Shown here piece after piece: positions 3,480 to 39,554 of a stretch of DNA of 64,000 nucleotides (positions are counted from its first letter, which is position 1; every line of letters starts with the position of its first letter). The stretch is from Octopus vulgaris. Its lineage: Eukaryota. The stretch is taken from assembly GCA_951406725.2 (NCBI GenBank), contig OX597819.1:39246001-39310000 (forward strand), written 5' to 3'. Both the position numbers and the translations under genes were made by a program. Under the pieces are notes generated by a model, which made no database searches, was not told where the DNA came from, and worked only from the letters and a program-made list of their open reading frames with translations.

Positions 3480-4172
3480 GCTAAAGATGTAGCAGCAGTT
3501 AAGTTGTAGAACAGGGGCCCATCAGTGTCACCATCATCAGGTTGCAAGCAAACTTCCGATAATTGGCCAGGAATGACATTCTCATGTGATGGAAGGAGCA
3601 TTTTTAAAGACTTCAAGTGTCAACTGTCTCATTAGCATAGGTTCTGTCTAAGCAATATCTCTTTGAGTAAACTCCCATAATCTGTTGCTCACCGATAAAT
3701 GCATGTTGTTCAAGGTCAGCTATTAACTGATCACAAATTTTCACCATATCGTCAGTAGGAATGGTTTCATATTCTTCAGTGAGCCACTGCACAGACACCC
3801 CATGATCAAGTTTCTGTAGTAACCCCATTTTCTGTACTATTGATAATGAGGTTTCTTTTTTCGTTTTCTGTTATCCATTGGGGTATCTGCAGTTCTTTTC
3901 AAACAATTTCAGGATAAATTATATGCAAAATCACGAGGAACAACACTAAGACAGTGAATTGCAAATGGACGTCTTCTCTCTATGAGTGCTGAGTCACACA
4001 TGACATTTGGCAATAAGTGGTAGCCAACCTGCCAAGCATTGCCACGTCATACCTGAATTGAGTTATGGTGGTCAGCTGTTTGCACACCTAAATGACGTAT
4101 TATGACGCACTCCACCCTTCATAAAAAATTTTCAGACTTTTTAGATTTCCGGATAAAGGGGTTGTGTACCTG
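3480..4172 (-). mobile_element. Tigger/pogo DNA transposon, internally deleted
   Basis: Terminus TA-CAGGTACACAACCCCTTTATCCGGAAATC at 4172. HTH-psq-like QKMGLLQKLDHGVSVQWLTEEY joined to C-terminal IPTDDMVKICDQLIADLEQHAFIGEQQIMGVY. Left boundary approximate. Confidence 0.75.
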
Positions 4173-4889
4173 TATGCTGACAAAGGCATTGTTGCATGAG
4201 AAACATTTTCAAATCAAGGGAGATAACTAAGATGATTTCAACACGACTGAAGTTTATATACATACATAATGATATATATATATATACATGAGACAGACGG
4301 GATTTCCTCTTTTGACCTATGATCAAAATAGAAAATCCCATCTTTTTAGAATAAAAGGTCATTATTTTAATGTTTTTTCTTTTCTTTTTTTTTTAGGGCA
4401 GATAAATAAAAGTACCAGTCTAGAGCAATGGCGAAGTGGAATTATTAGAGTTGAAAGGGTTGCCTTTGTTTTGTAGTACTTGTTCTGGCTCTCTGCATTC
4501 TGAGTTCAAATCCTGCTATGGCGTTTTTGATTAGTCGAACTTAATCACCTGGTTTGACAGCACCCTGTATGCCTTAGGTGGAGTCACTTTTTGTATTTAA
4601 ACCAGGTTTCCAGTTTGAAACTATCTTGCTCTCAACTAATACTACTACTACTACTCAAAAGTCCTATAAAGGATCTTTGGCACTACCTTTCCACCTGACA
4701 AAGCAAATAACTAAAAACCCAGTGACCATAAAAGTTCTCATTGACACAACTGATTTAACCCATTAGCATTTAAACCAGCCATATTTGGCCCAAATATTCT
4801 ATGCAGATTTTCAAATTGGCCAGACCCAGCCTCTCATGCTGACCTAAAAGTCACATCATCAAAATCTCAAAGCGACAAGATAAATACAC

Positions 4890-5190
4890 CATCATCATTA
4901 AACATCCGCTTTCCAAGCTAGCATGGGTTGAATGGCTTGACAGGAGCTAGCAAGGGGCCGCACCAAATTCCATAGACAGTTTGGGCTTGGTTTCTACAGC
5001 TGGATGCCCTTCCTGACCCCAATCACTTTACAGAGTGTACTGCATGCTTTTTATGTGGCATCATCACCAGTGTTTTACGTGGCACCTTGGTTTTTAGGAC
5101 ATCAATTCTGTTGAAACAGGCAGGTCTTTTGGAGAACAGCAATGTGCCACATAACTTGGTTCTTTTGTCATCTCCTTTGGAAGGCTCAGC
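4890..5190 (-). mobile_element. SINE family C with RTE-like 3' tail
   Basis: Tail CATCATTAAACATCCGCTTTCCAAGCTAGCATGGGTTG. Copies at 49725-49890, 53650-53990, 54141-54350, 59010-59325, 59350-59475. Confidence 0.75.
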
Positions 5191-6169
5191 AAAACAATGT
5201 AAATAACTAAGCATTACATTTGCCAGAGGAATCCAAATGTTAAAAGGTTAGAAAAGGTGATAAGATAACTAATGATTGAATTGTAATATACTCAAATTTG
5301 TTTTATCATTCAGACAGTATGTCCAGTTTGAATGTAAACTATCAGGCCTGTTGCCATACAGAGGCATCCTCATACCATACTATAATGTAGTGTGGTTGTT
5401 TAGTCTCAGGCTAGCCACATTATCAAAGTAACTGAAAGCTTGTTACCTAGGTGACCTAATCAACAATAGTGGTGGATATCAAGACAGTTGTAGTTGCCAG
5501 GCTAAGGACAAAGGTAGGAAAAGAGAGCTGTTACTTTAGTTGACAGCAAACTTCTCTCATCAAGTGTTGGGCAGACTGTATGATGTGAAATATTTGCATA
5601 GAAGCACAACCTAAGTGTTATGCAAAGGCAAAAAAAATCAGACATTCACTGTTGTGTGTTAGAAAGACTGCAATGATACAAACATGTGTATGAAGAATGA
5701 TTAAGTAAAGTGTCAAATTATTGTTGAGTCAAGTGGATGGAGCATGCAATATAAGAAAACTGAAGAAGATATGCACAGGTGATGAGGAATGGCCTTGTGA
5801 TGCCAAACCTTATTCACTAACATAATGTTCCAGTTGTGACCAAGCCATCTTTTTTTCAGCAATTTACAACAGATTTATTTCTCGAAGCTTGCCAATTGAT
5901 ATCCCAAATGACTGCAAACTAGCTTTGGTCAGTAGAAGGACATTTTGAATAATTTTAATATACTTTAGTAAAATTTTGATATTTCATGTTATATACATTA
6001 TAGTAATTGCATAATTCTTCTACTTTGGGTGTTTTTCCTTTCCTAACACTTGTTCTTGTATTATAATACCTACTGGCAGAACTGTATTTCTCGTCACATT
6101 GGCTAGTTATCGGAACACAGGCACAACTGAATTCACTTCCTTGTTCTTTTTTTTATCCTCTCTTGGTCA

Positions 6170-6399
6170 TTAACCCTTTCGTTACTGTATTCATTTTGAG
6201 ATGCTCTGTGTTTCTTTCAATTAATTGTAAATATAACAAAGAATTTAGTAAAATAACTTAGTTACCATTAAGCTACTGTTAGGATCATAAATTGTGACTA
6301 AGGTTTGGTGGTATATTTTAATGAAAAACTTATGATAAAAAGACATTTATACTACAGAGCCAGAGCCGGTTTTGGCCGGGTTAGTATCAATAGGGTTAA
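6170..6399. mobile_element. piggyBac-like MITE
   Basis: TTAA-CCCTTTCGTTAC ... GTATCAATAGGG-TTAA. Confidence 0.75.
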
Positions 6400-8043
6400 T
6401 AGTATCACATTATCAACTGCAAAAAAGGACTAAATTCACTGATCGAATACATTTTTATAATAAAAAAACAAAAAAGAAGAAACAGCAGTAAAAATGTGTC
6501 ATGTATTACAGTTCACATACAATTAACAAATAATTGCAATTTATTCCTATTTACCTGGATCCTCTATTGTTTATATAATTACTGATATGAAAATTCAATG
6601 TCTTGTCAGCAAAGAAAAATAAACTTAGCAGAATCATGGCCAACAGATGTAGGAAGAATAGTCATTTGTTTAAGACGCTTGTTTTACAATGACAGTGGTT
6701 AAGAGTTCAACCCCGCTGCACAAAACCTGGAGTTGACTGAAGCGATGTGAGTGAAATTTGATAGACAGAAACTTATTAGCAGTCAACTGGAAGAACTGCT
6801 TCTGTTGGTAGGTGGTTCTTATATCTGTTGCCCAGTTTATCAACACCATATACCCAGTGCATTTCAGACGAGTCCACTTTTCAGACCAGGTCTCTACACC
6901 AAAGATAACATCTTCCCATTAGCCTTGGGGGCACTGAAAAGGCGTTATTGGTGTATTCTTACCCTTCTCTAAGCTATAAAACAATTATGAAACAGTTACT
7001 AAGTCACAAGAGAATTGTATTTTGTACAGCAATGACTTTGAAGTTTGGATAATCAGAAATGACAGATCTGTACATCACAATAATATACTGACATATCTTG
7101 ACACTTAAATGTCTTTAAAAAAATGAGGAACTTGATTTATATGTCCAAAGAATATTTCCAAGTTCCACTTTATTAAATCAGAATCCTCAATTATTAAGGT
7201 TAATAAAAACATATACTAAAGTACCTTTCAGTCAAAAATTGTTTTGTACTAGAAAAACTAATGTATTAGTGCATAAATATTTAGCTTTTCTTTTGTGACT
7301 GAATATTATACTTTACCATCATCATTCATTTTTTTTTTCGTGAAAACTGCGATTACTTTTAATGTTCGTAAAACAAAATGATACTAGCATTCTTTCATGT
7401 CATCATATACAAGTTTCTTAGCAAGCAAAAGAGGAAGCTAGCATCGGTAGGTATTTTTGCAAATTTGACCATTTGCATTTTGTGTCAACAACACCATACC
7501 ACACTGAACCATTAAGTAGAAATGGAACATACAGTGAATCAGATAGACTAAGGCAAAAAAAATAATATTAAGAAATAAAATATGGTGCATTGTTGATTGT
7601 TAAAACCCAGCACCTTTATTTCTAAGCTGTTTTACCTCAAGACTAAAAATTCCTTGTTTATTCCAAAATGAACCACCAGCTTGTTTAGTCTCTCATTATA
7701 ACTACACTAAACAAAATTAGGGATTCCAAGCTTCTGTATCTGACATAAACTTGGACAAAGAAGTTTCTGGAATGCTTACTATCCTGACAGTATTGCTATT
7801 TTCTTGTAAACATTTTGGTGTTCATTAAAACCATTTTTTTTTACCTTTTTTTGTATAATATTATAAATTTTTCACCTTATCACTATCCTTTTTAGAAGAG
7901 AAAAACTTAAAATATTTCAATTTTTGATTCTTGTCAAGAAACAAAAACTTTATCAACATTTCTAACTGTTCAATTAAGTTAGATTCTGCTGAATATTTAC
8001 CTGTAGCAGTTAATAAATATGGGTTTTATTTGTGTCTCTATGC

Positions 8044-10182
8044 TCAGTCACAATCAGACTCATCAGACAACAAGTTCACAACATCATTTAAGGCTCTCTG
8101 TTTTTCTTTACATATTATTTGACTAGTTACAAAAATGCATTTTGACTTTCCAGGATGCTTTACTTGAATATGTTTCAAAATTTGCTGTCTTTGACTATTT
8201 TTAGCCTCACAGTGCGGACAGTGTACATATTTCAGCAAGTTCAATTGCAAGTGCTGCAACAGCTCAGCACTACATTGAAATATGAGGCCACAGTATGCGC
8301 AGCAGAATTCTTTCTCCTCTGAGTGAACGGAATCATTGTGTTGTACAAACATTTTGATAAGATTTGTGTTAAAACCACAAAGGGAACAAGAATAAAGAAG
8401 AAACATGTCTGTAGAGACATGGGTAGATAAGTGTTTTAAAAAGCAGTCAATAACTGGAAATGCTTGGCCACAGTGTGCACAAGCATAATCTTTTTTCTGT
8501 TTACTATGTACACAACGTAAATGCTCTACAAATTCATCTTGCACAAGGCTAGAAAACAAACAATTTGAAAATCCACATATATAAAAGTTCCCACCATAGA
8601 TTTCATTTTTCTCTTTAGGATATAGATTTACATTAATATAGGTAGTCTTTGAATTAAGTGGTTCTGTTTTTATTTTAGTAACATTGTCAACATTTGAAGA
8701 AACTACTAAATTAGATTCCTCAGATGTGGACTCTTTATTTGATATCACATTTGAATGTGGAGATTCTACAATCAACTTCCCAGATTCAAGTTCAGTTACT
8801 CTGGATAAATTATTTTCAGCAGGTTCAAACAATGTACTATCATCAATCACATATGCATTAGAAGCTAATGTTTTCTTTACAGACTCAAAAGTACTAAGTG
8901 ATTGTTTAGAAAGTTTAGTTGACTCCAAATAGTCATCAGATAAAGGCTCCACTAAATCTAAGTCAATAACCTTTCCATCTGATATATTCCTCTTGACATC
9001 TCTAACAGACCAAACTGCTTCAACCTTAATGTTGTTGCCACAATCTGACTGGCCAGGCATTTCTTCTTTTTCACCTGGCTGGAATAATAGCTTTGGATAA
9101 ATCTCAGGTTTATGTCCAAGTAGTTTAGAAATTGTTTTATTGTTTAGGAGTAAACGGTTGTAGGAAGTAGTAGGAGTCTGTTTCAAATGTTTTAAAGCAT
9201 TTTTGTCTGAAGATTTTGGTTTCAAATTTGGTTTATGGACATTTAAGCTAATTACACTTTGGTTTGACACAGGAGGGTTCGTTTTAGGTGCATCAGTCAT
9301 GTGTAAATATGTGTAAATATTATTAGACAATGATACACTAGGAGAAACTACAGTTGGGCTAGTTGCTAGCGAATTAGACTGAACATTAGGTGGTGGGATA
9401 CTTGCAGGAGTATATATGTTTGAATAAGGTGTAGTTGCAATAAGATTCATTACACCAGGCTCCAAAGTTTGAGGGAATTTTGCATATGGCAGTATTTTGT
9501 ATTTGGCAGTATTAACTGGTGAAACTACAGGTAGAGTAGGTGTTACCAAATTAGGGCGAACAAAAAATCCTAAAATGTCTTGATTTTGGTTATTAACCTG
9601 AACATTGGTTGCAAGTGCATATGGAGCAAGAGAAGTGGTAGTTGCTGTTGGGACATTAGAAGCAAATGTTTTTGTAGCTGAGGATTCAGTCACAGGTGTG
9701 ACTGGAACTGAACTTACAGGTATTTGTTTGTTTGAAGATCCAATGAGAAGTGGCTGGTAACCAAAAGAATTGGTTGTGTTTGGAATATTAATAATAATAG
9801 GTGGCACAGCTTCAGAAACTTTGACAGAACTCTGTACTTCAGGTGCAGCACAAACGATTTGAAAATTCTGGTTTGAAGGTGTTTGTATAGTACCTAAATA
9901 GTTTTTTGGTAATATATTTGGCAATAAAACAGGAGATTTCTTCTGAAAAGTTGCATGTTTTTTCTGATTGGGTGAGTAAGACATTTGCTTTTGTGAAAGA
10001 TTAACAGGTCCAGCTGTTACAGGTGATAAAATTATAGGTGAATCACTTTTTGAAGATCCAGTAGAGGTTTTTTCCTTGTTATGCTTGGCCATCTCTTGAG
10101 ATGGAGTGTCAGTCGAGGCATCACTGATAATTAGAGAATTAGTTTGTCCTGGTAATCCATCTAATTTCAGTTGGCCGTCTAG
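8044..10182 (-). CDS. C2H2 zinc-finger protein, C-terminal part (in-frame continuation after the UGA; five C-terminal fingers)
   Basis: Open from 10182 to TGA 8046-8044 (then GCA TAG), same frame as the upstream ORF. S/T/P/N-rich middle. Fingers CGFSNC..H..H, CAHC..H..H, CSLC..H..H, CAYC..H (degenerate), CPHC..H..H. SUMO-type motifs IKVE, IKTE and SIM-like VIDL. Confidence 0.85.
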   Translation of the reverse strand, partial: LDGQLKLDGLPGQTNSLIISDASTDTPSQEMAKHNKEKTSTGSSKSDSPIILSPVTAGPVNLSQKQMSYSPNQKKHATFQKKSPVLLPNILPKNYLGTIQTPSNQNFQIVCAAPEVQSSVKVSEAVPPIIINIPNTTNSFGYQPLLIGSSNKQIPVSSVPVTPVTESSATKTFASNVPTATTTSLAPYALATNVQVNNQNQDILGFFVRPNLVTPTLPVVSPVNTAKYKILPYAKFPQTLEPGVMNLIATTPYSNIYTPASIPPPNVQSNSLATSPTVVSPSVSLSNNIYTYLHMTDAPKTNPPVSNQSVISLNVHKPNLKPKSSDKNALKHLKQTPTTSYNRLLLNNKTISKLLGHKPEIYPKLLFQPGEKEEMPGQSDCGNNIKVEAVWSVRDVKRNISDGKVIDLDLVEPLSDDYLESTKLSKQSLSTFESVKKTLASNAYVIDDSTLFEPAENNLSRVTELESGKLIVESPHSNVISNKESTSEESNLVVSSNVDNVTKIKTEPLNSKTTYINVNLYPKEKNEIYGGNFYICGFSNCLFSSLVQDEFVEHLRCVHSKQKKDYACAHCGQAFPVIDCFLKHLSTHVSTDMFLLYSCSLCGFNTNLIKMFVQHNDSVHSEEKEFCCAYCGLIFQCSAELLQHLQLNLLKYVHCPHCEAKNSQRQQILKHIQVKHPGKSKCIFVTSQIICKEKQRALNDVVNLLSDESDCD

Positions 10183-10917
10183 TCACTTGACTGGCGGCAC
10201 ACACTGTTCTCTGAAGAATTTTTCCTCAAAACTCTTTCTTGGCTGACATGCCTGAAGATTATCTTTCTTTGCAATAGGCATCTGATTCAAAGGTGTTTTC
10301 GCAGCAGACATAATTTTCACCATTGAAGATGACTTTACAGAAGATGGCTGAATGATTCCATGAGATGAGCAAGCAGTTTTGGTAGCAGTGATAGGTATAG
10401 GAGAACTTGGCTGTGGAGTAGACATTGAAGAGCTAATATTTTGTTGATCTACATGGGAATCAGTTACAGGAACTGATGTCACTTTTTCTGGGTTTACAAT
10501 ATCCTCAAAAGGAACAAGACTAAACATTAAATTCTTACTTGCATGTTTTACAGAATGGTGATTTTTAATAGAAGTGACTTTAGAAAAATAGCCACGACAA
10601 TGGAAACACCGTAACAAGAAAGTAGTTGTAGAAGGAGTTTTACCTTCCAGGTATGGCTCTTCAAGTTGAAGCAGGAGTTTCTTGTATTTCTTTTTTTCAT
10701 TATCTGGCTGATTAGTTGTAGCGATCCTTTTCTTGTTGAAAGAACGACACATTGAGATGTGTGCATCGAATAAGCCATGGTCATCTGTAGTGAATTTACA
10801 ACCAGAACACCGCTGTACACCATACTTTGACCAATCAACTGAACTCGGTGGTTTTGTTTTGGAATTATTTTCACCACTTTCTGCTGCCTGTGACTCATCT
10901 TTCTCATTCAGATTCAT
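10183..10917 (-). CDS. C2H2 zinc-finger protein, N-terminal part (244 aa if terminated at the first UGA)
   Basis: First in-frame ATG at 10917 (AAAATGA) after a strong acceptor (tttcttctctttccag|G, exon start 11105). Fingers CSGCKFTTDDHGLFDAHISMC and CFHCRGYFSKVTSIKNHHSVKH. Ends at TGA 10185-10183. Confidence 0.85.
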   Translation of the reverse strand: MNLNEKDESQAAESGENNSKTKPPSSVDWSKYGVQRCSGCKFTTDDHGLFDAHISMCRSFNKKRIATTNQPDNEKKKYKKLLLQLEEPYLEGKTPSTTTFLLRCFHCRGYFSKVTSIKNHHSVKHASKNLMFSLVPFEDIVNPEKVTSVPVTDSHVDQQNISSSMSTPQPSSPIPITATKTACSSHGIIQPSSVKSSSMVKIMSAAKTPLNQMPIAKKDNLQACQPRKSFEEKFFREQCVPPVK

Positions 10918-11334
10918 TTTTGTTTGTTTATTTTCTTTTACCCTTTTCCCCACCACTCTTTGCCTTCGTATCAGAAGTTTCTGTATATCTAGCACATTAG
11001 AAACTTTATCAAAACATTTGTCCACTTAGACTATTTCTAACATGTGATGAATCGACTGACGCCTTTTTTGTAAAAAAACACAAATCGGTTTCCAAATAGT
11101 GGTCCCTGGAAAGAGAAGAAATATAAAATATGAACTTTTAAAGCCAAACAAATTTGACAGAAATTTTTAAAATTAAATTATCAGTCATAGAAAACTATGC
11201 CAAACAATATTCATGAAGTGTATATATATTAAAAATATAGTTTAACGCCCCACCCCACACACACCACTACCACCAATATCGGAAATCTTGCTTATCTAAC
11301 CGGAAATCCCCTTCCGTACTGGTAGTCTCCTCTC

Positions 11335-14222
11335 TCATACCTGCAATCTCACCCGTGGCCCCCACTTCCCACTCTCTCTCTTGCCAGGGACTAACCTAAC
11401 CAGATTGCAACCCACCCATTTACTTAATCTAACATTGGCATATTTACATTCATATTTATGTTTTAAATTTATATCTGCAGCACCAGTAAAGCTTATGTTT
11501 ACAATGCTCATAACGCTTATACTTACAATGCCTATAACACTTTCATTTACAATGTTTCCTACTCTTACCCCCAATAGGGACAACAATTTTTTAACAATTT
11601 TAACATGTTTAAATTGTGATAAGTTAAAAACGAGAACAGCCTGTGTGACATGTCTACCAAATGATCGCGGAAACCTTCTTTTCAGGTACTGAATAATATC
11701 TCTCCTTCCCATGTTTCCTCCCACATCCCTTTCCCAGCTTTTAGAGTTGGCACTGTCAATGTAGGTCAAGTGAGATTGTAGAGATGCTTGAAAGGAGATG
11801 TGTTGATGTATGCTGCATACAAGAGGTAAGGTGGAGAGGAGCTTCAGCTAGGGTCCTCACAGGCAAGACACATAGGTATAAAATCTTCTGGGAAGGTAAC
11901 AGTAACAGAGTAGGTGAAGTGGGCATACTCCTAGCAGAGAAATGAGTGGATAGGGTCATAGAGGTAGTAGGGTGTGCGATAGAGTACTTAAGCTCAGGCT
12001 AGTCTTGCAGAATAGTATAGATACAATAATCTCTGCCTACACTCTACAAGTGGGCCTACCAAATGAACAGAAGAACCACTTTTATGATATTCTTCTGCCA
12101 GCTACCTCAAAGATGAGCGACAATGATCTCATCTTTGTGGCTGGAGACTTTAATGGACATGTTGAACGGCAACCTGGTGTCTTCCATGGTGTTCATGAAA
12201 TTGGTTCTCAAAACGAAGTTCTGTGATGCAAGTAACCTATTGATCTGCAACACCAACTTCAGACAGTGGGATGCATGGTTGCTCTTAAATACAAAGACCC
12301 TCCCTGGTGAAGAATGTAACCCCAGCATAGACTAGTTATTAATGACTTTAGACTCAAGGCCAGAAAGATGCCAAGAAGCAGACTAATCTGGAAAAGAAGG
12401 ATTTGGAAGGTTAAGAACTTTTCACATGGTAAGAGATTTAGGGACATCCTCTTGAGAAATTTGATGAGAGGGAAGAAAAGCTACATACTTGACATAGGGG
12501 GCAACTGAGAATCCCTGCATGACAGCTTGCTGTGTGCCATGGACCAAATCTGTGCCTGGTGCAAAGTTCCTTCCAGACCTAGGGTAATGTGGAGGTGGAA
12601 TAATATGGTAGACAGGGCCATTACAGCAAAGAAGCAGGCCTGGAAAGTCTGGAAGAATGTGGGTAGCAAGGAACTGTATCAGATAGCCAGAAAGGAAGTT
12701 AGGTGACAGGTATATATAGCCAAGGTAGAAGCAGAAAAGAAGAAGCTTGCCAATGTTCAGCGATGTGAGGACCAAAGAACTGAAGTATTTTGGATTGCAA
12801 GACAGTGTGTGAAAGAACATTTTGATGTCATACGAGAGAAATGTGTCTGCATGGATGATGGTACACTTGTGTTTAATGATTCTGCAAAGAAAGATGCTTG
12901 GGGATACCATTATGAAAGTCTGCTGAATGTGAAGAATGAATGGGAGGAGGAGAGCCTGTAAATGTTGACCCAGTTGAGGGACCAGCTACTTGCAGTGGCA
13001 GTACCCTGGCAGATTAAGCAATTATGGATATGAAGACAGGAATTACTGCAGAGATGCTTAAAATATCTGGTGGTGTGGGTTATGGCCTAGTTACCCATAC
13101 TGTAAATCAGGTAATTCACGAAGGAGTCATACCCAGTGACTGGTGTAGCAGTACTATAGTCAACTGCTATGAAGGTAAAGGTGATGCATTAGATAGAAAT
13201 AACTACAAGTGTATCAAATTGCTGGATCAGGTAATGAAAGTCACGAAGAGGGTCATAGCCCTACTAATTAGGGAGAGAGTTAGCCTAGATGATATGCAGT
13301 TTGCTTTTGTGCAAGGTAGAAGCACTACTGATGCTATATTTCTGGTAAGGCAACTGCAGGAGAAATACCTAGCCAAAAGCCTTTGACAGAGTCCCCCGAA
13401 CCCTTATCTGGTGGTCAATGTGGGAACTAGGTATAGATGAGTAGTTGGTAAGAGCTGTACAAGCCTTGTACAGAGATGCAATCAGTAAGGTACGGGTTGG
13501 CAACAAGTATAGTGAGGAATTCTGGGTAGAAGTAGGGGTTCACAAAGGATCAGTCCTCAGTCCCCTCTTATTCATCATAGTCCTCAAGGCAATAACAGGG
13601 GAATTCAAGAAAGGCTGCGCCTGGGAGTTCCTCTGTGCTGATGACCTTGCCCTAATAGCTGAACTAAAGATGAAGTTTTTGGTGTGGAAGCAAGGTCTAG
13701 AATTGAAAGGCCTTAGAGCCAATCTAACAAAAACCAAAGTACTAGTAAGTAAGAAAGCAGTCAAATCACAAACCATATCAAGTAGATGGCCCTGCTCAAT
13801 CTGTAGAAAAGGCATAGGTAGAAACTCCATAGGATGGACCCAGTGTAAGCTATCGACACATAAGAAGTGCAGCAATATCAAAGGGAGGTTAACTGAGAAG
13901 ATAGTTTTTGTGTGTGGCAGATGCACAGGGGCAATAAACACCAAAAGCATACAGAGAACAGATTTCATCACATGTCAAGGGGAGAAACTAGAAGTAGTTG
14001 ATAGCTTCGGCTACCTAGGTGACCAAGTCTGTAGTGGAGGTGGATGCTCAGAGAGCATAGCCGCTAGAATAAGAATAGCCTGGGTAAAGTTTAGAAAGCT
14101 CCTACCTCTGCTGGTAACAAAGAGCCTCTTGCTCAGAGTGAAAGTTAGACTGTATGATGCATGTGTGCAAACATCCATGCTACACAGCAGTGAAACATGG
14201 GCCATGAATGATGATGATGATG
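11335..14222 (+). mobile_element. RTE-clade LINE, degenerate (APE endonuclease, RT, PHD-like Cys motif)
   Basis: LRVGTVNVG near 11740, AGDFNGHV, QFAFVQGRSTTDAIF, HKGSVLSPLLF, LCADDL, LHSSETWAM, then (GAT)n. Many stops and frameshifts. 5' boundary approximate. Confidence 0.93.
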
Positions 14223-14778
14223 GTACATGAATTTAGTCTTAGAAGTGTTGGAATGGGTAAAGTAGGCATATTGTTGACAGAGGAATGGATTAAGTAACAG
14301 CAGCCAGTTACTTCTGTGTATGAATTGCAGTCAGAAGTGAAAAATGGACCATTTCTATGAGGTCCTTTTGCAAACCACCTAATAAATGACAGTAACCTCA
14401 TTATTATGGCTTTAATGAACATGTTGGACAACATGATGGCTACAAAGGTACACATGATGACTATGGATAGAGTACAGGAAAAAAAAGGGGGTGAAGGCTC
14501 TAGGAGTTTTTGTGATGCAAGTGACCTAACCTTCTGCAAACCAACCAGTGTACCCTATCACCTAACAATCAAGTGAAAAAGCAAACCAGAAACACTCCAT
14601 ACTTACAAGAAAACAAGATAGGTAACTGGCTCTGAATATTAATCCTTCTTTGGTAAAAAATATACTGCTCAACACAGACTGGTGGTTAGCAATCTCAGTA
14701 TAAGAGTGAGGTAAACTCAGGGATAAATGATAATCAGGGGAAGTTAAGAAATAAAAGTTGAAAGATAGCTTCAATTAA

Positions 14779-22460: not shown

Positions 22461-25400
22461 GCTCAATCTCTTTCGGTGCTGGTACATCGAACATGTCGTA
22501 AAACACATCCATTGGAATTTCCTTCCTTTTTTCTGTATGACTGATCTTTAATTGATTTAAATGTCGTTTATGCTCCCATCGTTGGTCTTTTATTAAATAT
22601 ATCGCGTTTCCAATTCTTTTAGTCACTACAACATCCTGTCAACTCTCTTTACCGTTCTTGTATATTTTGAAATGGACTTTGTCTCCGACATCAAAATGTT
22701 TAGTTGAATTTTTTTGTATTTTCTCTATACGTTTTTTCCTTTGGCAACAAGTTGTCGAAGATCGATTTAATCTTTCGCGTGAATATTAGCTTTGCAGGCG
22801 ACTTGCCTGAACTGGTTTTGGGATTGGGCGTTTTTCTGTACACACTTAAGAATTTAGTTAGCGCTTCATCATTTCCTAACTCGTTTCTTGCTTTTTTAAG
22901 CGCTCGCTTGAAAGTATCTACGAATCGTTCTGCTTGCCCATTTGACCTCGGGCGGCAGGTCGAGGTAAACATGTGCTTGACTGCAAGCATTTTGCAGAAT
23001 TTCTTGAATTCATATCCTCTTCTATTTTCCGATACTATGGTGTCCGGAACACCGTTTCGAGTAAAAAGTTCGTGAAGGAACTTTATTGTTGCCTTCGATG
23101 TAAGTTGACTGCACTCACATACTTTCGGCCACTTGGTAAAGCTATCAACAATGATCAAGTAGTACGCGCCTTTTCCTGGTCCAGGGTAGTTTATATGTAC
23201 CCTGGACCACGGACTATCCATCTCAGGCTACAATTGGTATTTCACCGGTGGTGCCTTGGTTTCTAGCGCACACCTTCTACAAGATTTTACCAAGTTTTCA
23301 ATGCCCCGGTCCATTGTCAGACAATACACGTAACTCCTCATCAAAGATTTCATTCTTGACATTCTCGAGTGTTCAGTATGAAATTCGAGTAATATCCGTT
23401 TCTGTAGTGCAGTTAGTACTACCACTCTTTGTGCGTACATTAATACATCGTCACAGTGTGAAAAATTATTCGCATTCGTGTTTCTCTTCTGTTTATTTTT
23501 CAAGGCTGCTTTCATTTTTATGATGTATTTGTACTCCGCTGATTTACTTTTTATATCTTGTACAGTCACTGGCAACTCCTGAATGACATTACACATAACA
23601 TCTTTAATTTCCTTTTCTGATTGTAATGCGGCTATAACCGTATCTTCTAGCTGTTCCGTATTCTTCGGAATTAGTGTAGATAAACAATCCACATGGCCAA
23701 TATTCTTCGAAGGAATGTACTCCATCTTAAAATTTTACCCCAGCGTTGTAGATGAATGGGTAGACAATCCTTTCTTCGATCCGAAAATTAATTGTAACAG
23801 TTGGTGGTCCGTCTGAAGCCGAAAACGTCCACTGTGAAATTTCTTCACGGCATAAACTATTGCTAGAGCTTCTTTCTCTATCTGACTGTAGTTTTTCTCT
23901 GCTGCAATCAAAGCACGTGAGGCGTGGACCACTGCCTTCATATTACCGTCTTTATATCTGTGTTGCAAAACTGCTCCTACGCCGTATTCAGAAGCTATAG
24001 CAATCTCCACTGCAGGATACAAATGAGCCACCGACAAATCCAAAATTTAAATTTTTTTATATCCTAAAACGCCTTTTGACAGTTATTTGACCAATTCAGT
24101 TTGGCGTCTTTCTTTAGCAAATCATTAAGTGGAGCTCTCAGTTCATATGTTTGGTATGTAATTTTGATAATAGTTCACTAGGCCAAGAAAAGCTTGGGTA
24201 ATGTTAGTTGGGTGAGACATATTTTTAATTGCGTCTGCCATCGATGTGTCAGGTCGTCTTCCATTTTCATCTATAATTTGTCCTAAATATCTAATTTTAG
24301 GCAAAAAGAATTAACATTTCTCCTCACTAAGTGTGAAATCGTAATCTCTTTTATCTTTTGAAAAACACACTTCACATGTTTGATATGCTGATCACGTGAT
24401 TCACTTTTAATTAATACATTATCGAGGCATGGAATTGCTAACTGACAGTCCACCAACATCACATGCATAACCTGTTGAAAAATTGCGGTGCGACTTTCAG
24501 ACCAAATGATAATCTATTATATTTGTATAGTCCTCTGTGCGTATTCACTGTTAGAAGCTTCAAGCATTCCTCTCTACTTTAATTTGTAGATACGCATCAG
24601 ACAGATCCAGTTTCGAAAATATTTTGCCACCATTTAATTTTGCAAAAATATCCCCCGGAATAGGCAATGGATAGTGGCACATTTTTTGACAGTCATTCAA
24701 GCCAGTAGAAAAATCGGCACAGGCCCTGATTTTGTTATTTATTTTTTAATACTCACCGATGGTGCTGCCCACTTAGAATAATTTACTTTTTGAATAATTC
24801 TCATTTTCTTCAGTCTGTCTAACTCTTCTTCTACCTGCTTTATCGCAGCAAATGGATCTTTCTATAGGGTTTGTATATAGGTACATTTTCCTTCATTTGA
24901 AAACAGGCCTCAGTCTTAGAACAGAGACCTAATTTATCCGACAACTCTTCAGGAAATAACTTTTTTAAAATTTTTTCTTCAATTCCGCTGCTGAGTTATT
25001 TTTCACTGGTGGGACAGCCATTTATTTTTTTTACAGAACAGACTTATGAGGAAGTCCCATAACACAAACAACTCCAACCAAAACGTACAGAACAGATTGG
25101 TTGCGTTTTTTACCACGAAAATGTTTGCTCTCCAAGTTTTTCCCTGAAATGTGATATCACTCTACATTTCGCCCACGAAGTGTAGTTTTTCTCCTGTCAC
25201 GCCTCGTGCAATTTTCGATGTTCTTCTTAACGTAGATTTCTCAATTCTTTTCTACGTGTCGGTATCAATAACCGAGATATCGCTACCAGTATCTAGTTGT
25301 AATTTAATATTCACTTTGTCTACATTTACATGTACCAATTTCCTCTTTTGGTGTCGCTTCTACTTTCCGTTGAGAAAACTTTAGAATTTTTTAATATTCG

Positions 25401-36762: not shown

Positions 36763-36871
36763 TTCTTTCCTGAGCGTCCAATAATACTATTCTTGTTCCA
36801 CGTCCTCGCGTTGTGTTTTCTCTTTGTGTTTTCATGTTTGGATTAACTTTGTATATATATATATATATATA

Positions 36872-39554
36872 TCACGGACAAGGAGTATGAATACATCACT
36901 AACTTCAAGTGCAAATCATGTTTGTTCTACAGTATCCCTAAAGTCCACAAAAGCCAAATAATTAGTGAAACATGCAAAACATCTACCGATATACTCATCA
37001 AAATCCCTTCACCAAATGATCTTAAACTTAGACCGATAATAGCAGGCCCAGCATGTGAAACTCACCGCCCCAGCAATTTCTTAGACACACTTCTTAAACC
37101 TTTCCTAAAACACATCAAAAGCTACGTAAGAGACGATATAGACATGCTTAACCACCTCCCTAAAACAGTCAATGAGAAAACCCTTCTAGTATCCTTCGAC
37201 GTAATTAACCTTTATTCAAACATCCCTCACACCCTAGGAATAGAAGCGATCACTTTCTGGCTAAATAACTACTCCTTTGAACTCCCAACTCGCATAAATA
37301 TAGAACTTATAATAGAAGGACTTAGAAAACAATTACTTTATTTTTGACAATAATTTCTACAGACAAAGATCGAGAACAGCGATGGGCACGCGTACTGCGC
37401 CTTTTTTTGCCAACCTAGTGATGGGATGCCTCGAGAAAATACTCTACCAGATAACACTCGAGAAATATGGAAACACCTTCTCCACCTATATCCAGAACAA
37501 CTGGAAAAGATACCCCGACGACTGCTTTATATAGTATAGAGAAACTTGAGGAATTTAAAATACTATTAAATGGAATAAATGATAATATACAATTCACGAT
37601 GGATCATAACGAAGAAGAATTACCATTTTTAGACATCCTCATTAAGAAAGCCGGCAACAAAATAGAGACAGATATCTATTATAAACCGACAGACTCCAAA
37701 CAGTACCTACTCTTTGATTCATGCCACCCAAGACACACTAGAATAAATGTCCCTTTTTGTTTAGCTAGAAGGATTTGCACCATAATATCAGACACAAACA
37801 CCCGTCACACACGTCTCCAGGAACTTAGAACTACACTCATAAATAGAAATTATCCACAGCCCCTAATAGACAGTGCAATCCAACGGGCACTTAAATTAAG
37901 TATAGAAGACCTGAGACAAACAAAACCAAAAAAGAAAGAAAAATTAAAAACCCTTCCCTACATCTCTACACACAACCCACCTAACAATGAGGCCTTCAGT
38001 ACCATACTACAAAGCACAGCCCTACTAAAGGGAGACCCAAAGATGAACCGGATCCTCGAAACACACACCATCATTAAAAGTAAACGGCAACCAAAATCCT
38101 TGAAAAGGATTTTAACCCAAGCTAAACTGCACTCAACATCAACCACAAAACCAGCAGTTAGAAAATGTGGAAGGCCCAACTGCGGAATCTGTGTCATCTT
38201 GGTAGAAGGTTCAGAATTTATACTAGAATAAGGCCATCAGTTCACCATAAGAACAAACTTCACCTGTGCATCAGAAAACTTAATTTACGTCTTAACATGC
38301 GCAGGCTGCAATAGGCAGTATATAGGCCATACAAAGAATAGCTTATGTAAAAAGATGGCGGTGCATAAATCCCAAATTAGAAACCCTGAATACCGGAAAA
38401 TACCGGTCAGCGGACACATAGATAGATGTGCTACAAATGAAAATCTGAAATTTACAACTTAACCACTTTACAAATTCAGTGACAGCGTAACCTTCACCCA
38501 ACGCCAAAATAAAGAACTTTATTTCATCAAAAAATTTAGACCAAGTTTGAACACCCTGGGCCAGGAATATTAAAACAAAACATTGGTCTTCCGAAAAGGA
38601 AAAATGAACTTCTACCACAACCACCACTACCACTACGACTGCTTCCACTAGCACTACTACTACAACCACCGTGGTCACTACTATTGCTGCTACGATCAAC
38701 AGCCCTCTACTGCTGCTACGGCCACAGTGTGAGAATTAAAATGGTAAAAAAAGGGTGGAGGTGGGGGGAATTACAATTTCTCAGATCTTTAAACAGTCAC
38801 TCCCGCTTGCAATGGTATATTTTAGGGAAAGATGAATTTATAAAAAAAAAATTTTTTCTGTGAGCAGATCTGATTTTGATTCGTTAAAAAATTGATGTCG
38901 TTCTGCTTGGTTGGTTTCCTTACAGGATACTGTTATGGGTGAGATCTGATTCGTTAAAAAATTGATGACGTTTTTCTTCCGTGGCCAAGCTTGTCGTTCT
39001 GCTTGGTTGGTTTCCTTACAGGATACAGTTATGGGTCTTTTCTTTGTATTCGTTGAAGTTTGGTTTTGATTGGTTTGGAATTATGTGACGTCAGTGAACA
39101 GTGCCAGTGAACCCACCACTTTTGCTGCCACGGCCACAGTTTAACTGCTACAACCCCAACAACCACCAAGGTTGCCAAAATTACGACCAACAGTAAAAGT
39201 CACAGGTTACTACTACTACGACAAACAATCACTACAGTTGCTACCATTGGAACACAAGGTAACAAAAAAGCGGTTCCTTTTGATACCAGCAAGAAACAAT
39301 AATGGACTTCTTCACTACACTCAACAGTAATATAGCGATTATACCAACTACCGACAAAACAACACCACATGGATTCTATTGAGACGATTATGAACTTTTC
39401 CATTGCACTTTTTATAATATTTTTGATAAGGTTCGTTTTTTCAGGAACCGAAACATGTAAAATTCATAAGAAAATAAAAATTTATCTAATATAGTGGCGT
39501 TTTCAAACTTCTTTTTTACAAATATATACCCACTCGTATACGATCTACTCTTAT

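Follow-up and report, generated by a model that had tools for sequence, protein, structure and literature searches.

An in-frame UGA-CUAG stop inside an octopod zinc-finger gene, a strong candidate for programmed readthrough

Among described systems of stop-codon readthrough, the vertebrate genes with a UGA-CUAG stop (OPRL1, OPRK1, AQP4, MAPK10, MDH1, LDHB and VDR; PMC4132726, PMC5868278, PMC4207609) are close to the site discussed here, and in the parts of these papers drawn on, their heptamer is identical to that of octopus. The octopus site lies on the minus strand of a 64,000-nucleotide (nt) stretch of the Octopus vulgaris genome (GCA_951406725.2, contig OX597819.1, positions 39,246,001 to 39,310,000; hereafter the window, whose own numbering is used below), inside a zinc-finger gene with two open reading frames (ORF1 and ORF2) separated by a single in-frame UGA. 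The vertebrate extensions are short (13 amino acids (aa) in MAPK10, 67 aa in VDR) and reportedly need no conserved structure, whereas the octopus gene has an extension of 713 aa that holds most of its fingers, an ancestral coding match and a predicted hairpin. In human contexts, readthrough at UGA-CUAG was reported as 1.3-6.7% in all 17 contexts and as 6-17% for the four genes with the highest values (PMC5868278), and deletion of CUAG nearly abolished it (PMC4132726).

In overall layout, the octopus gene is like kelch and headcase of Drosophila (bioRxiv 10.1101/2020.06.22.165522), which also have two long in-frame ORFs and one stop between them (689 + 782 aa in kelch). There, a predicted 3′ stem-loop is described as stimulating readthrough, and the octopus site also has a predicted 3′ hairpin; however, readthrough of the Drosophila genes is reported as measured and neuron-enriched, whereas that of the octopus gene is predicted and its long form is ancestral. 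The alphavirus-type UGA-CUA(G) signals, as presented in PMC13517186, have a structure whose start, 11-12 nt past the A-site codon, lies close to the edge of the entry channel for mRNA, and this is also the predicted arrangement in octopus. In contrast to the alphavirus signals, the octopus site belongs to a cellular gene and its structure is predicted from one sequence. Readthrough of Ir75a in Drosophila sechellia, a so-called pseudo-pseudogene, reportedly bypasses a stop inside an ancestrally unbroken ORF. The Ir75a stop is said to be recent and limited to that species, whereas the octopus stop is common to Octopus species and, at least for the end of ORF1, to Argonauta, and the segment before it is constrained. 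Among molluscs, the NADP-dependent isocitrate dehydrogenase of Aplysia has a predicted site with the same core TGACTA and an extension N16-SKL (PMC4207609 supplement), but this extension is a short peroxisomal tag and that of octopus is multi-domain. Long mollusc proteins with weak ZNF462-type fingers (P0011, P0015, P0021 and the paralogues on contig C25 of the same genome) share with the octopod gene the five-finger block and the N-terminal finger, yet these are single ORFs of 1300-3900 aa and the octopod gene is interrupted.

Re-reading the minus strand bore out the shared frame on which the original prediction was built. From AUG 10917 to UGA 8046-8044 there are 958 codons with a single internal UGA at 10185-10183 and no frameshift (Table 1), and the junction codons are CCA GTC AAG TGA CTA GAC GGC CAA CTG. 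The conceptual product is 244 aa, one residue X at the stop and 712 aa, in total 957 aa. In our judgement, this UGA-CUAG is probably, though by no means certainly, a programmed leaky stop that would yield isoforms of 244 and 957 aa. The two fingers before the stop and the five after it are as first described, except that finger 1 of ORF1 is of the C2HC and not the C2H2 type, and that one of the five (CAYC..HLQLNL) is without its second His. Counting both strands, the window has 7398 stop triplets, of which 9 are TGACTAG; as a control for chance, 4189 of 20000 random 90-nt stretches had no stop in a given frame. Within the 2.8-Gb genome the junction exists as a single copy (1 match; a repeat search gave 1 forward/reverse match and 0 control matches), and the finger module of ORF1 has itself as its sole significant genome match, the second match having an E-value of 0.27 and containing stops.

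Table 1. Features around the internal stop, in window coordinates. Splice scores come from an approximate matrix, in which the 99th percentile of window AGs for acceptors is 5.0.
Feature	Position	Strand	Remark
Strong 3′ splice acceptor	11105..11127	-	score 11.3, highest for any AG between 11200 and 10050
Three short upstream ORFs (5, 2 and 2 codons) ahead of the ORF1 AUG	10989..11043	-	
ORF1, 244 aa: C2HC + C2H2 finger (~aa 27-141), linker, conserved last 29 aa	10186..10917	-	
Alternative predicted hairpin pairing across the stop, A of UGA in the stem	10168..10210	-	relevant to the editing explanation
Candidate in-frame 63-nt GT-AG intron removing the stop	10124..10186	-	donor 1.4, acceptor -1.1, weak sites
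Internal stop, UGA-CUAG-ACGGC	10174..10185	-	sequence read directly
Predicted 17-bp hairpin, +15 to +63, beginning 11 nt past the stop	10123..10171	-	top folding z-score among 355 windows
ORF2, 712 aa: Ser/Thr/Pro-rich linker, IKTE and SIM-like motifs, finger block	8047..10182	-	
First in-frame AUG past the stop (GAG AUG G), start of annotated 682-691 aa proteins	10090..10092	-	
Five-finger block, four complete, one without second His	8071..8613	-	46% identity to P0011
Terminal stop UGA-G, in-frame UAG two codons later	8044..8046	-	

The break in the reading frame is shared among octopods. When the readthrough sequence was used as query against proteins of 526-1675 aa, there were four matches, three of them ORF2-only proteins with MAKH as first residues (682 aa in O. 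sinensis, 691 aa in O. bimaculoides and a Logan protein of 687 aa), and the fourth a distant fish protein; none of the four was a fused octopod form. If a sense codon stood at the stop site in these species, their ORFs would reach upstream to ~960 aa, but ORF2 is annotated from MAKH in all three. The window's ORF2 is identical to the O. sinensis protein at 679 of 682 residues. The ORF1 query gave three matches, namely the window's own protein, an octopod protein of 244 aa (P0007, 84%) and one of 248 aa from Argonauta hians (P0008, 58%), and their C-termini fall in one alignment column in 3/3 sequences, as VPPVK, VPPIK and VPPAT, respectively. P0007 occurs on 5 contigs, and the ORF2 variants P0004 and P0010 on 3 and 2; the longest contig is 5047 for both ORFs, which suggests that one contig carries both. 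Two scans of metagenome contigs found no relative (251 and 137 pattern matches, 0 confirmed in each).

Constraint on either side of the stop, which the original prediction proposed as a check, was found at the protein level, with ORF2 covered from AUG 10092 onward. Identities were counted between the window protein and the P0007 octopod proteins and compared by Fisher tests. Fingers are more conserved than linkers in ORF1 (107/115 versus 52/74 identical, p=6e-5) and also in ORF2 (180/190 versus 344/432, p=4e-7), and overall identities are 93-97% for fingers and 70-86% for linkers; by this comparison, the finger blocks flanking the stop are under purifying selection. The last 29 aa before the stop are identical at 27 of 29 positions (p=0.018 against the linker), and may form a C-terminal motif of the short form or a piece of the recoding signal. 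These residues (10186-10272, minus strand) match the fingers in conservation, and the heptapeptide FEEKFFR is coded by a perfect 9-bp hairpin. On the other side of the stop, the peptide of the spacer (10147-10182, minus strand) starts LDGQLK LDGLPG, and its two LDG copies differ synonymously only (CTA GAC GGC / TTA GAT GGA), which can be taken, post hoc, as a hint of spacer translation.

Homologues with an unbroken frame can help to understand the origin of this stop. In a profile search over 1.84 billion representatives, the best match after the octopod proteins was P0011, a single ORF of 2053 aa that matches both the finger pair of ORF1 (117 bits, 41% identity) and the block of ORF2 (174 bits, 46% identity). 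P0174, which is 64% identical to P0011, is open for 1181 aa through the equivalent region. A finger-block tree was built from 75 rows (55 distinct) after removal of P0002, P0009 and all rows of <85 bits or <140 columns; there, ORF2 of the octopods joins P0011 and P0188 at 96/89, separately from the C25 paralogues, and P0011 is likely from another coleoid. Thirteen further long proteins of 158 scanned, including five named as bivalve, from Argopecten, Sinanodonta, Mytilus, Mactra and Saccostrea, also hold a weak N-terminal finger and the C-terminal block in one chain. Because both modules stand in one chain in P0011 and in bivalve homologues, we infer that the ancestral gene was one ORF and that the stop was gained inside it on the octopod line. 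Readthrough would then restore an ancestral protein, and the short isoform would be the innovation.

Several side observations concern this family. Five paralogues of the five-finger block lie on C25 (10.1-28.7 Mb, L005-L009) as single open frames of 1297-3874 aa, three of them within ~180 kb; they form a mollusc family, so far uncharacterised, of very long finger proteins encoded by single exons. With ZNF462 models, one of six relatives was barely above one cut-off (27.3 vs 27) and three were sub-threshold. The octopod protein stops just past the finger block, and P0011 and P0188 run at least 700 residues further with more fingers; the orthologue's C-terminal third has no match anywhere in the window, and a third coding piece was rejected. 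The in-frame leader was also considered as a remnant of the N-terminus of the orthologue, but the match was not significant (E 1.3).

The context of the octopus stop resembles known stimulatory contexts beyond the heptamer. UGA is followed directly by CUAG, and +11G and +12C are also present. The human MDH1 context given in PMC13517186, UGACUAGAC, has its first 9 nt equal to the octopus site, and +11G and +12C are described there as increasing readthrough in such a context. A folding scan of 355 windows of 70 nt along 11110-7500 placed its two top z-scores on the flanks of the stop, with -5.07 at 10180-10111 and -4.77 at 10230-10161. The ribosome covers 11-12 nt beyond the A site according to the same paper, and the predicted hairpin begins at that edge. 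Its position also agrees with stem-loop-stimulated readthrough of the kelch, headcase and alphavirus type, in which a stable stem-loop begins some 8-12 nt past the stop. A mobile-element origin of the hairpin was rejected because the junction is single-copy.

As an independent check, one gene, malate dehydrogenase (MDH), was picked in advance in the same genome. The last exon of the cytosolic enzyme (L018:1501-1731, plus strand; C16 ~52348141-52348371), whose best matches are cytoplasmic MDH, ends with TGA CTG and then codes for LFDPKL before TAA. UGA-CU with a tail resembling the type 1 peroxisomal targeting signal has been reported for MDH1 from Hydra to human (PMC4207609, in the part drawn on), and a PKL end was scored weakly positive in its supplement. 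The octopus tail is thus a predicted readthrough-derived peroxisomal tag as in vertebrate MDH1, and the readthrough device is plausibly in use in this animal.

According to our model, most ribosomes would halt at UGA and release the 244-aa protein with its C2HC and C2H2 fingers, and in a fraction of cases UGA would be decoded by a near-cognate tRNA, which by precedent carries Trp, Arg or Cys. The basal rate would be set by CUAG-ACGGC and increased by the hairpin, which would sit at the entry channel for mRNA. The long form would gain the Ser/Thr/Pro-rich linker, the five-finger block and motifs that we take to be SUMO-site-like (IKTE) and SUMO-interacting-motif-like (SIM-like), and would have seven fingers in total. 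Because of the fingers, a nuclear, chromatin-associated role is suggested for this protein, whose family has no known function, and the short:long ratio would tune its activity, the short form being without the five-finger block. Since the stop is apparently in the last exon, the transcript would escape junction-dependent decay. The readthrough rate may vary by tissue, as for kelch. A more specific scenario, which we put forward tentatively and hold to be somewhat doubtful, is that UGA-CUAG and the hairpin were fixed at the octopod base inside an ancestral multi-finger gene and were kept as a regulated switch: the new short isoform would have its own conserved C-terminus, and the long form would come from recoding that depends on the tissue, either by readthrough (perhaps enriched in neurons, as in Drosophila) or by editing. 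The original prediction of readthrough is strengthened by the conserved break, the constraint, the unbroken orthologues, the hairpin and the MDH1 parallel, while readthrough itself stays predicted.

Different kinds of observations weigh against programmed readthrough. UGA-CUAG by itself gives only ~1.3-7% in human cells, as reported in the part of PMC5868278 drawn on. Against stricter controls the hairpin stands out only moderately, as equal stability was reached by 7 of 599 coding windows of matched GC content and by 57 of 2000 synonymous resamples. The conservation of the last 29 aa of ORF1 is not significant against Argonauta (16/29 versus 27/74 in the linker, p=0.12), and nothing similar to the 30-codon spacer was detected in the orthologues with an unbroken frame. 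An ORF2 protein of Argonauta was not found among proteins of 334-2000 aa (6 matches from 147 candidates) or of 526-1675 aa; it may be unannotated, short or lost. The break in other octopods is seen at the level of protein sequences, and the lineage of P0011 is only a likely one from its tree position. Moreover, AUG 10092 has a strong context and is kept in 4/4 species.

Rival routes are not mutually exclusive with readthrough. The gene may have been split in two, so that ORF2 is translated from AUG 10092, either on a shorter mRNA made from an internal promoter or an alternative acceptor, or by reinitiation, and CUAG is incidental or allows trace readthrough; this is unlikely but by no means negligible. 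The same AUG is the annotated start in all four species, NCBI holds three accessions each of ORF2-only proteins for O. sinensis and O. bimaculoides, and constraint on both pieces is what a split would produce. However, plain leaky scanning is ruled out by the 23 AUGs that stand ahead of that of ORF2 within the exon, and each of the six acceptors from the stop to this AUG is weak (-8.5 to -1.1, versus 11.3 for the real acceptor). Reinitiation after an ORF of 244 codons is normally inefficient, and annotation pipelines by default take the first AUG after a stop, both of which count against a split gene; a split also leaves the shared frame, the rare motif and the hairpin unexplained. Alternative retention of a 63-nt intron (10186-10124) would likewise give two products, a 936-aa protein upon splicing and the 244-aa form upon retention, with the hairpin masking the branch point and the 3′ splice site. 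The statement in the original prediction that no good donor was seen is not quite right, because AA|GTGACT at 10186 and the in-frame AG at 10125-10124 bound such an intron. Among window GTs the donor ranks near the 95th percentile, TCAG is preceded by two CTAAT motifs that resemble branch points, the 3′ arm of the hairpin ends on the acceptor AG, and removal of the intron would also restore the ancestral single chain. We nevertheless hold it improbable, as the acceptor does not have the long pyrimidine tract of the real acceptors in this gene and in MDH, and G-UGA-CU is automatically donor-like. Of 5692 control codons, 371 lie within an in-frame pair of the same quality, so that the frequency of such pairs is close to chance, 994 of 5914 positions with a donor have such an acceptor, and no fused protein of ~930 aa is among the four matches, which include RefSeq models of two species.

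Conversion of the A of UGA to inosine by ADAR would give UGG (Trp), and the editing level would then set the amount of long protein. Coleoids recode heavily, and stop-loss edits that join adjacent ORFs have been handled in cephalopod transcriptomes (PMC8382921, in the part drawn on), but the case there is UAG to UGG and here the stop is UGA; the examined portion of the supplement of that paper has no stop-loss entries. A predicted stem, which lies in the window ranked second of 355 for folding, has the A paired with p=0.99, but this A sits 2 bp from the tetraloop. Of all 5′ neighbours, the G found in UGA is the one that ADAR favours least, and the changes V to I in P0007 and to AT in Argonauta would probably alter the 5′ arm. 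Moreover, the stop is retained in public assemblies and editing does not require CUAG, so that we regard it as quite improbable. An assembly error, a recent nonsense allele or a dead downstream remnant, of which the original prediction named the first two, would fit the missing ORF2 of Argonauta. The stop column is shared in three lineages and the break is present in two more, and the downstream finger blocks are 95-100% conserved; recurrence of the break in octopods, constraint on both sides and the unbroken orthologues make these explanations very unlikely, to the point that we give them almost no weight. A selenocysteine codon would agree with an in-frame UGA at a conserved position, yet the site is within a low-complexity linker. 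Searching 4000-12000 for a selenocysteine insertion sequence with Rfam gave no such element (E up to 5; 1 match, to a snoRNA model far below threshold), and a simple pattern had 0 matches in 3 kb of 3′ sequence, so this possibility can practically be dismissed.

The mechanism proposed is already known; the octopus feature is real and conserved, and readthrough at it is a strong though unproven candidate, as judged from sequence. Abundant readthrough has been conjectured to be restricted to Pancrustacea (PMC5100048, in the part drawn on). Insects offer well-documented cases of long functional readthrough, and recoding in cephalopods is discussed almost entirely as RNA editing. In agreement with the original prediction, no cephalopod readthrough case and no paper on these gene identifiers was found in the literature searched, which mostly leaves subscription journals outside. 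If true, this would be the first case of long functional readthrough known from cephalopods and, as a conserved case, would add a second recoding layer in octopods; it would also be a sign that such genes are annotated as split pieces. Annotations carry ORF2 only (O. sinensis, O. bimaculoides) or, as found, ORF1 only (A. hians), and thus the full protein is absent from the databases searched. The gene would also offer a clear case of polarity, in which the short isoform is the novelty.

Some further features of the locus can be added. The strong acceptor places the start of the coding exon at 11105. Besides the three upstream ORFs, the leader (10918-11043, minus strand) holds an in-frame open stretch of 36 codons; ORF1 of Argonauta starts 17 residues earlier, where the window has GTG GGG AAA, which may be a non-AUG start or a lost AUG. 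A second readthrough event at 8046 was considered and rejected in view of the context UGA-G and the UAG two codons on. Neither ORF1 nor ORF2 has a Pfam match above cut-off, nor a match to the ZNF462 models of Pfam at E up to 1, and the fingers of ORF1 have only generic C2H2 neighbours in the ESM Atlas. The retroelement pieces at 36.8-38.2 kb gave no Pfam match at E 0.001. Retroelement fragments in the window, at 13445-14230 (plus strand), 22700-23734 (minus strand) and 36847-38231 (plus strand), are ordinary repeats, and the domains recognised among them are reverse transcriptase (PF00078, below cut-off), integrase core (PF00665) and a zinc-binding domain (PF17921).

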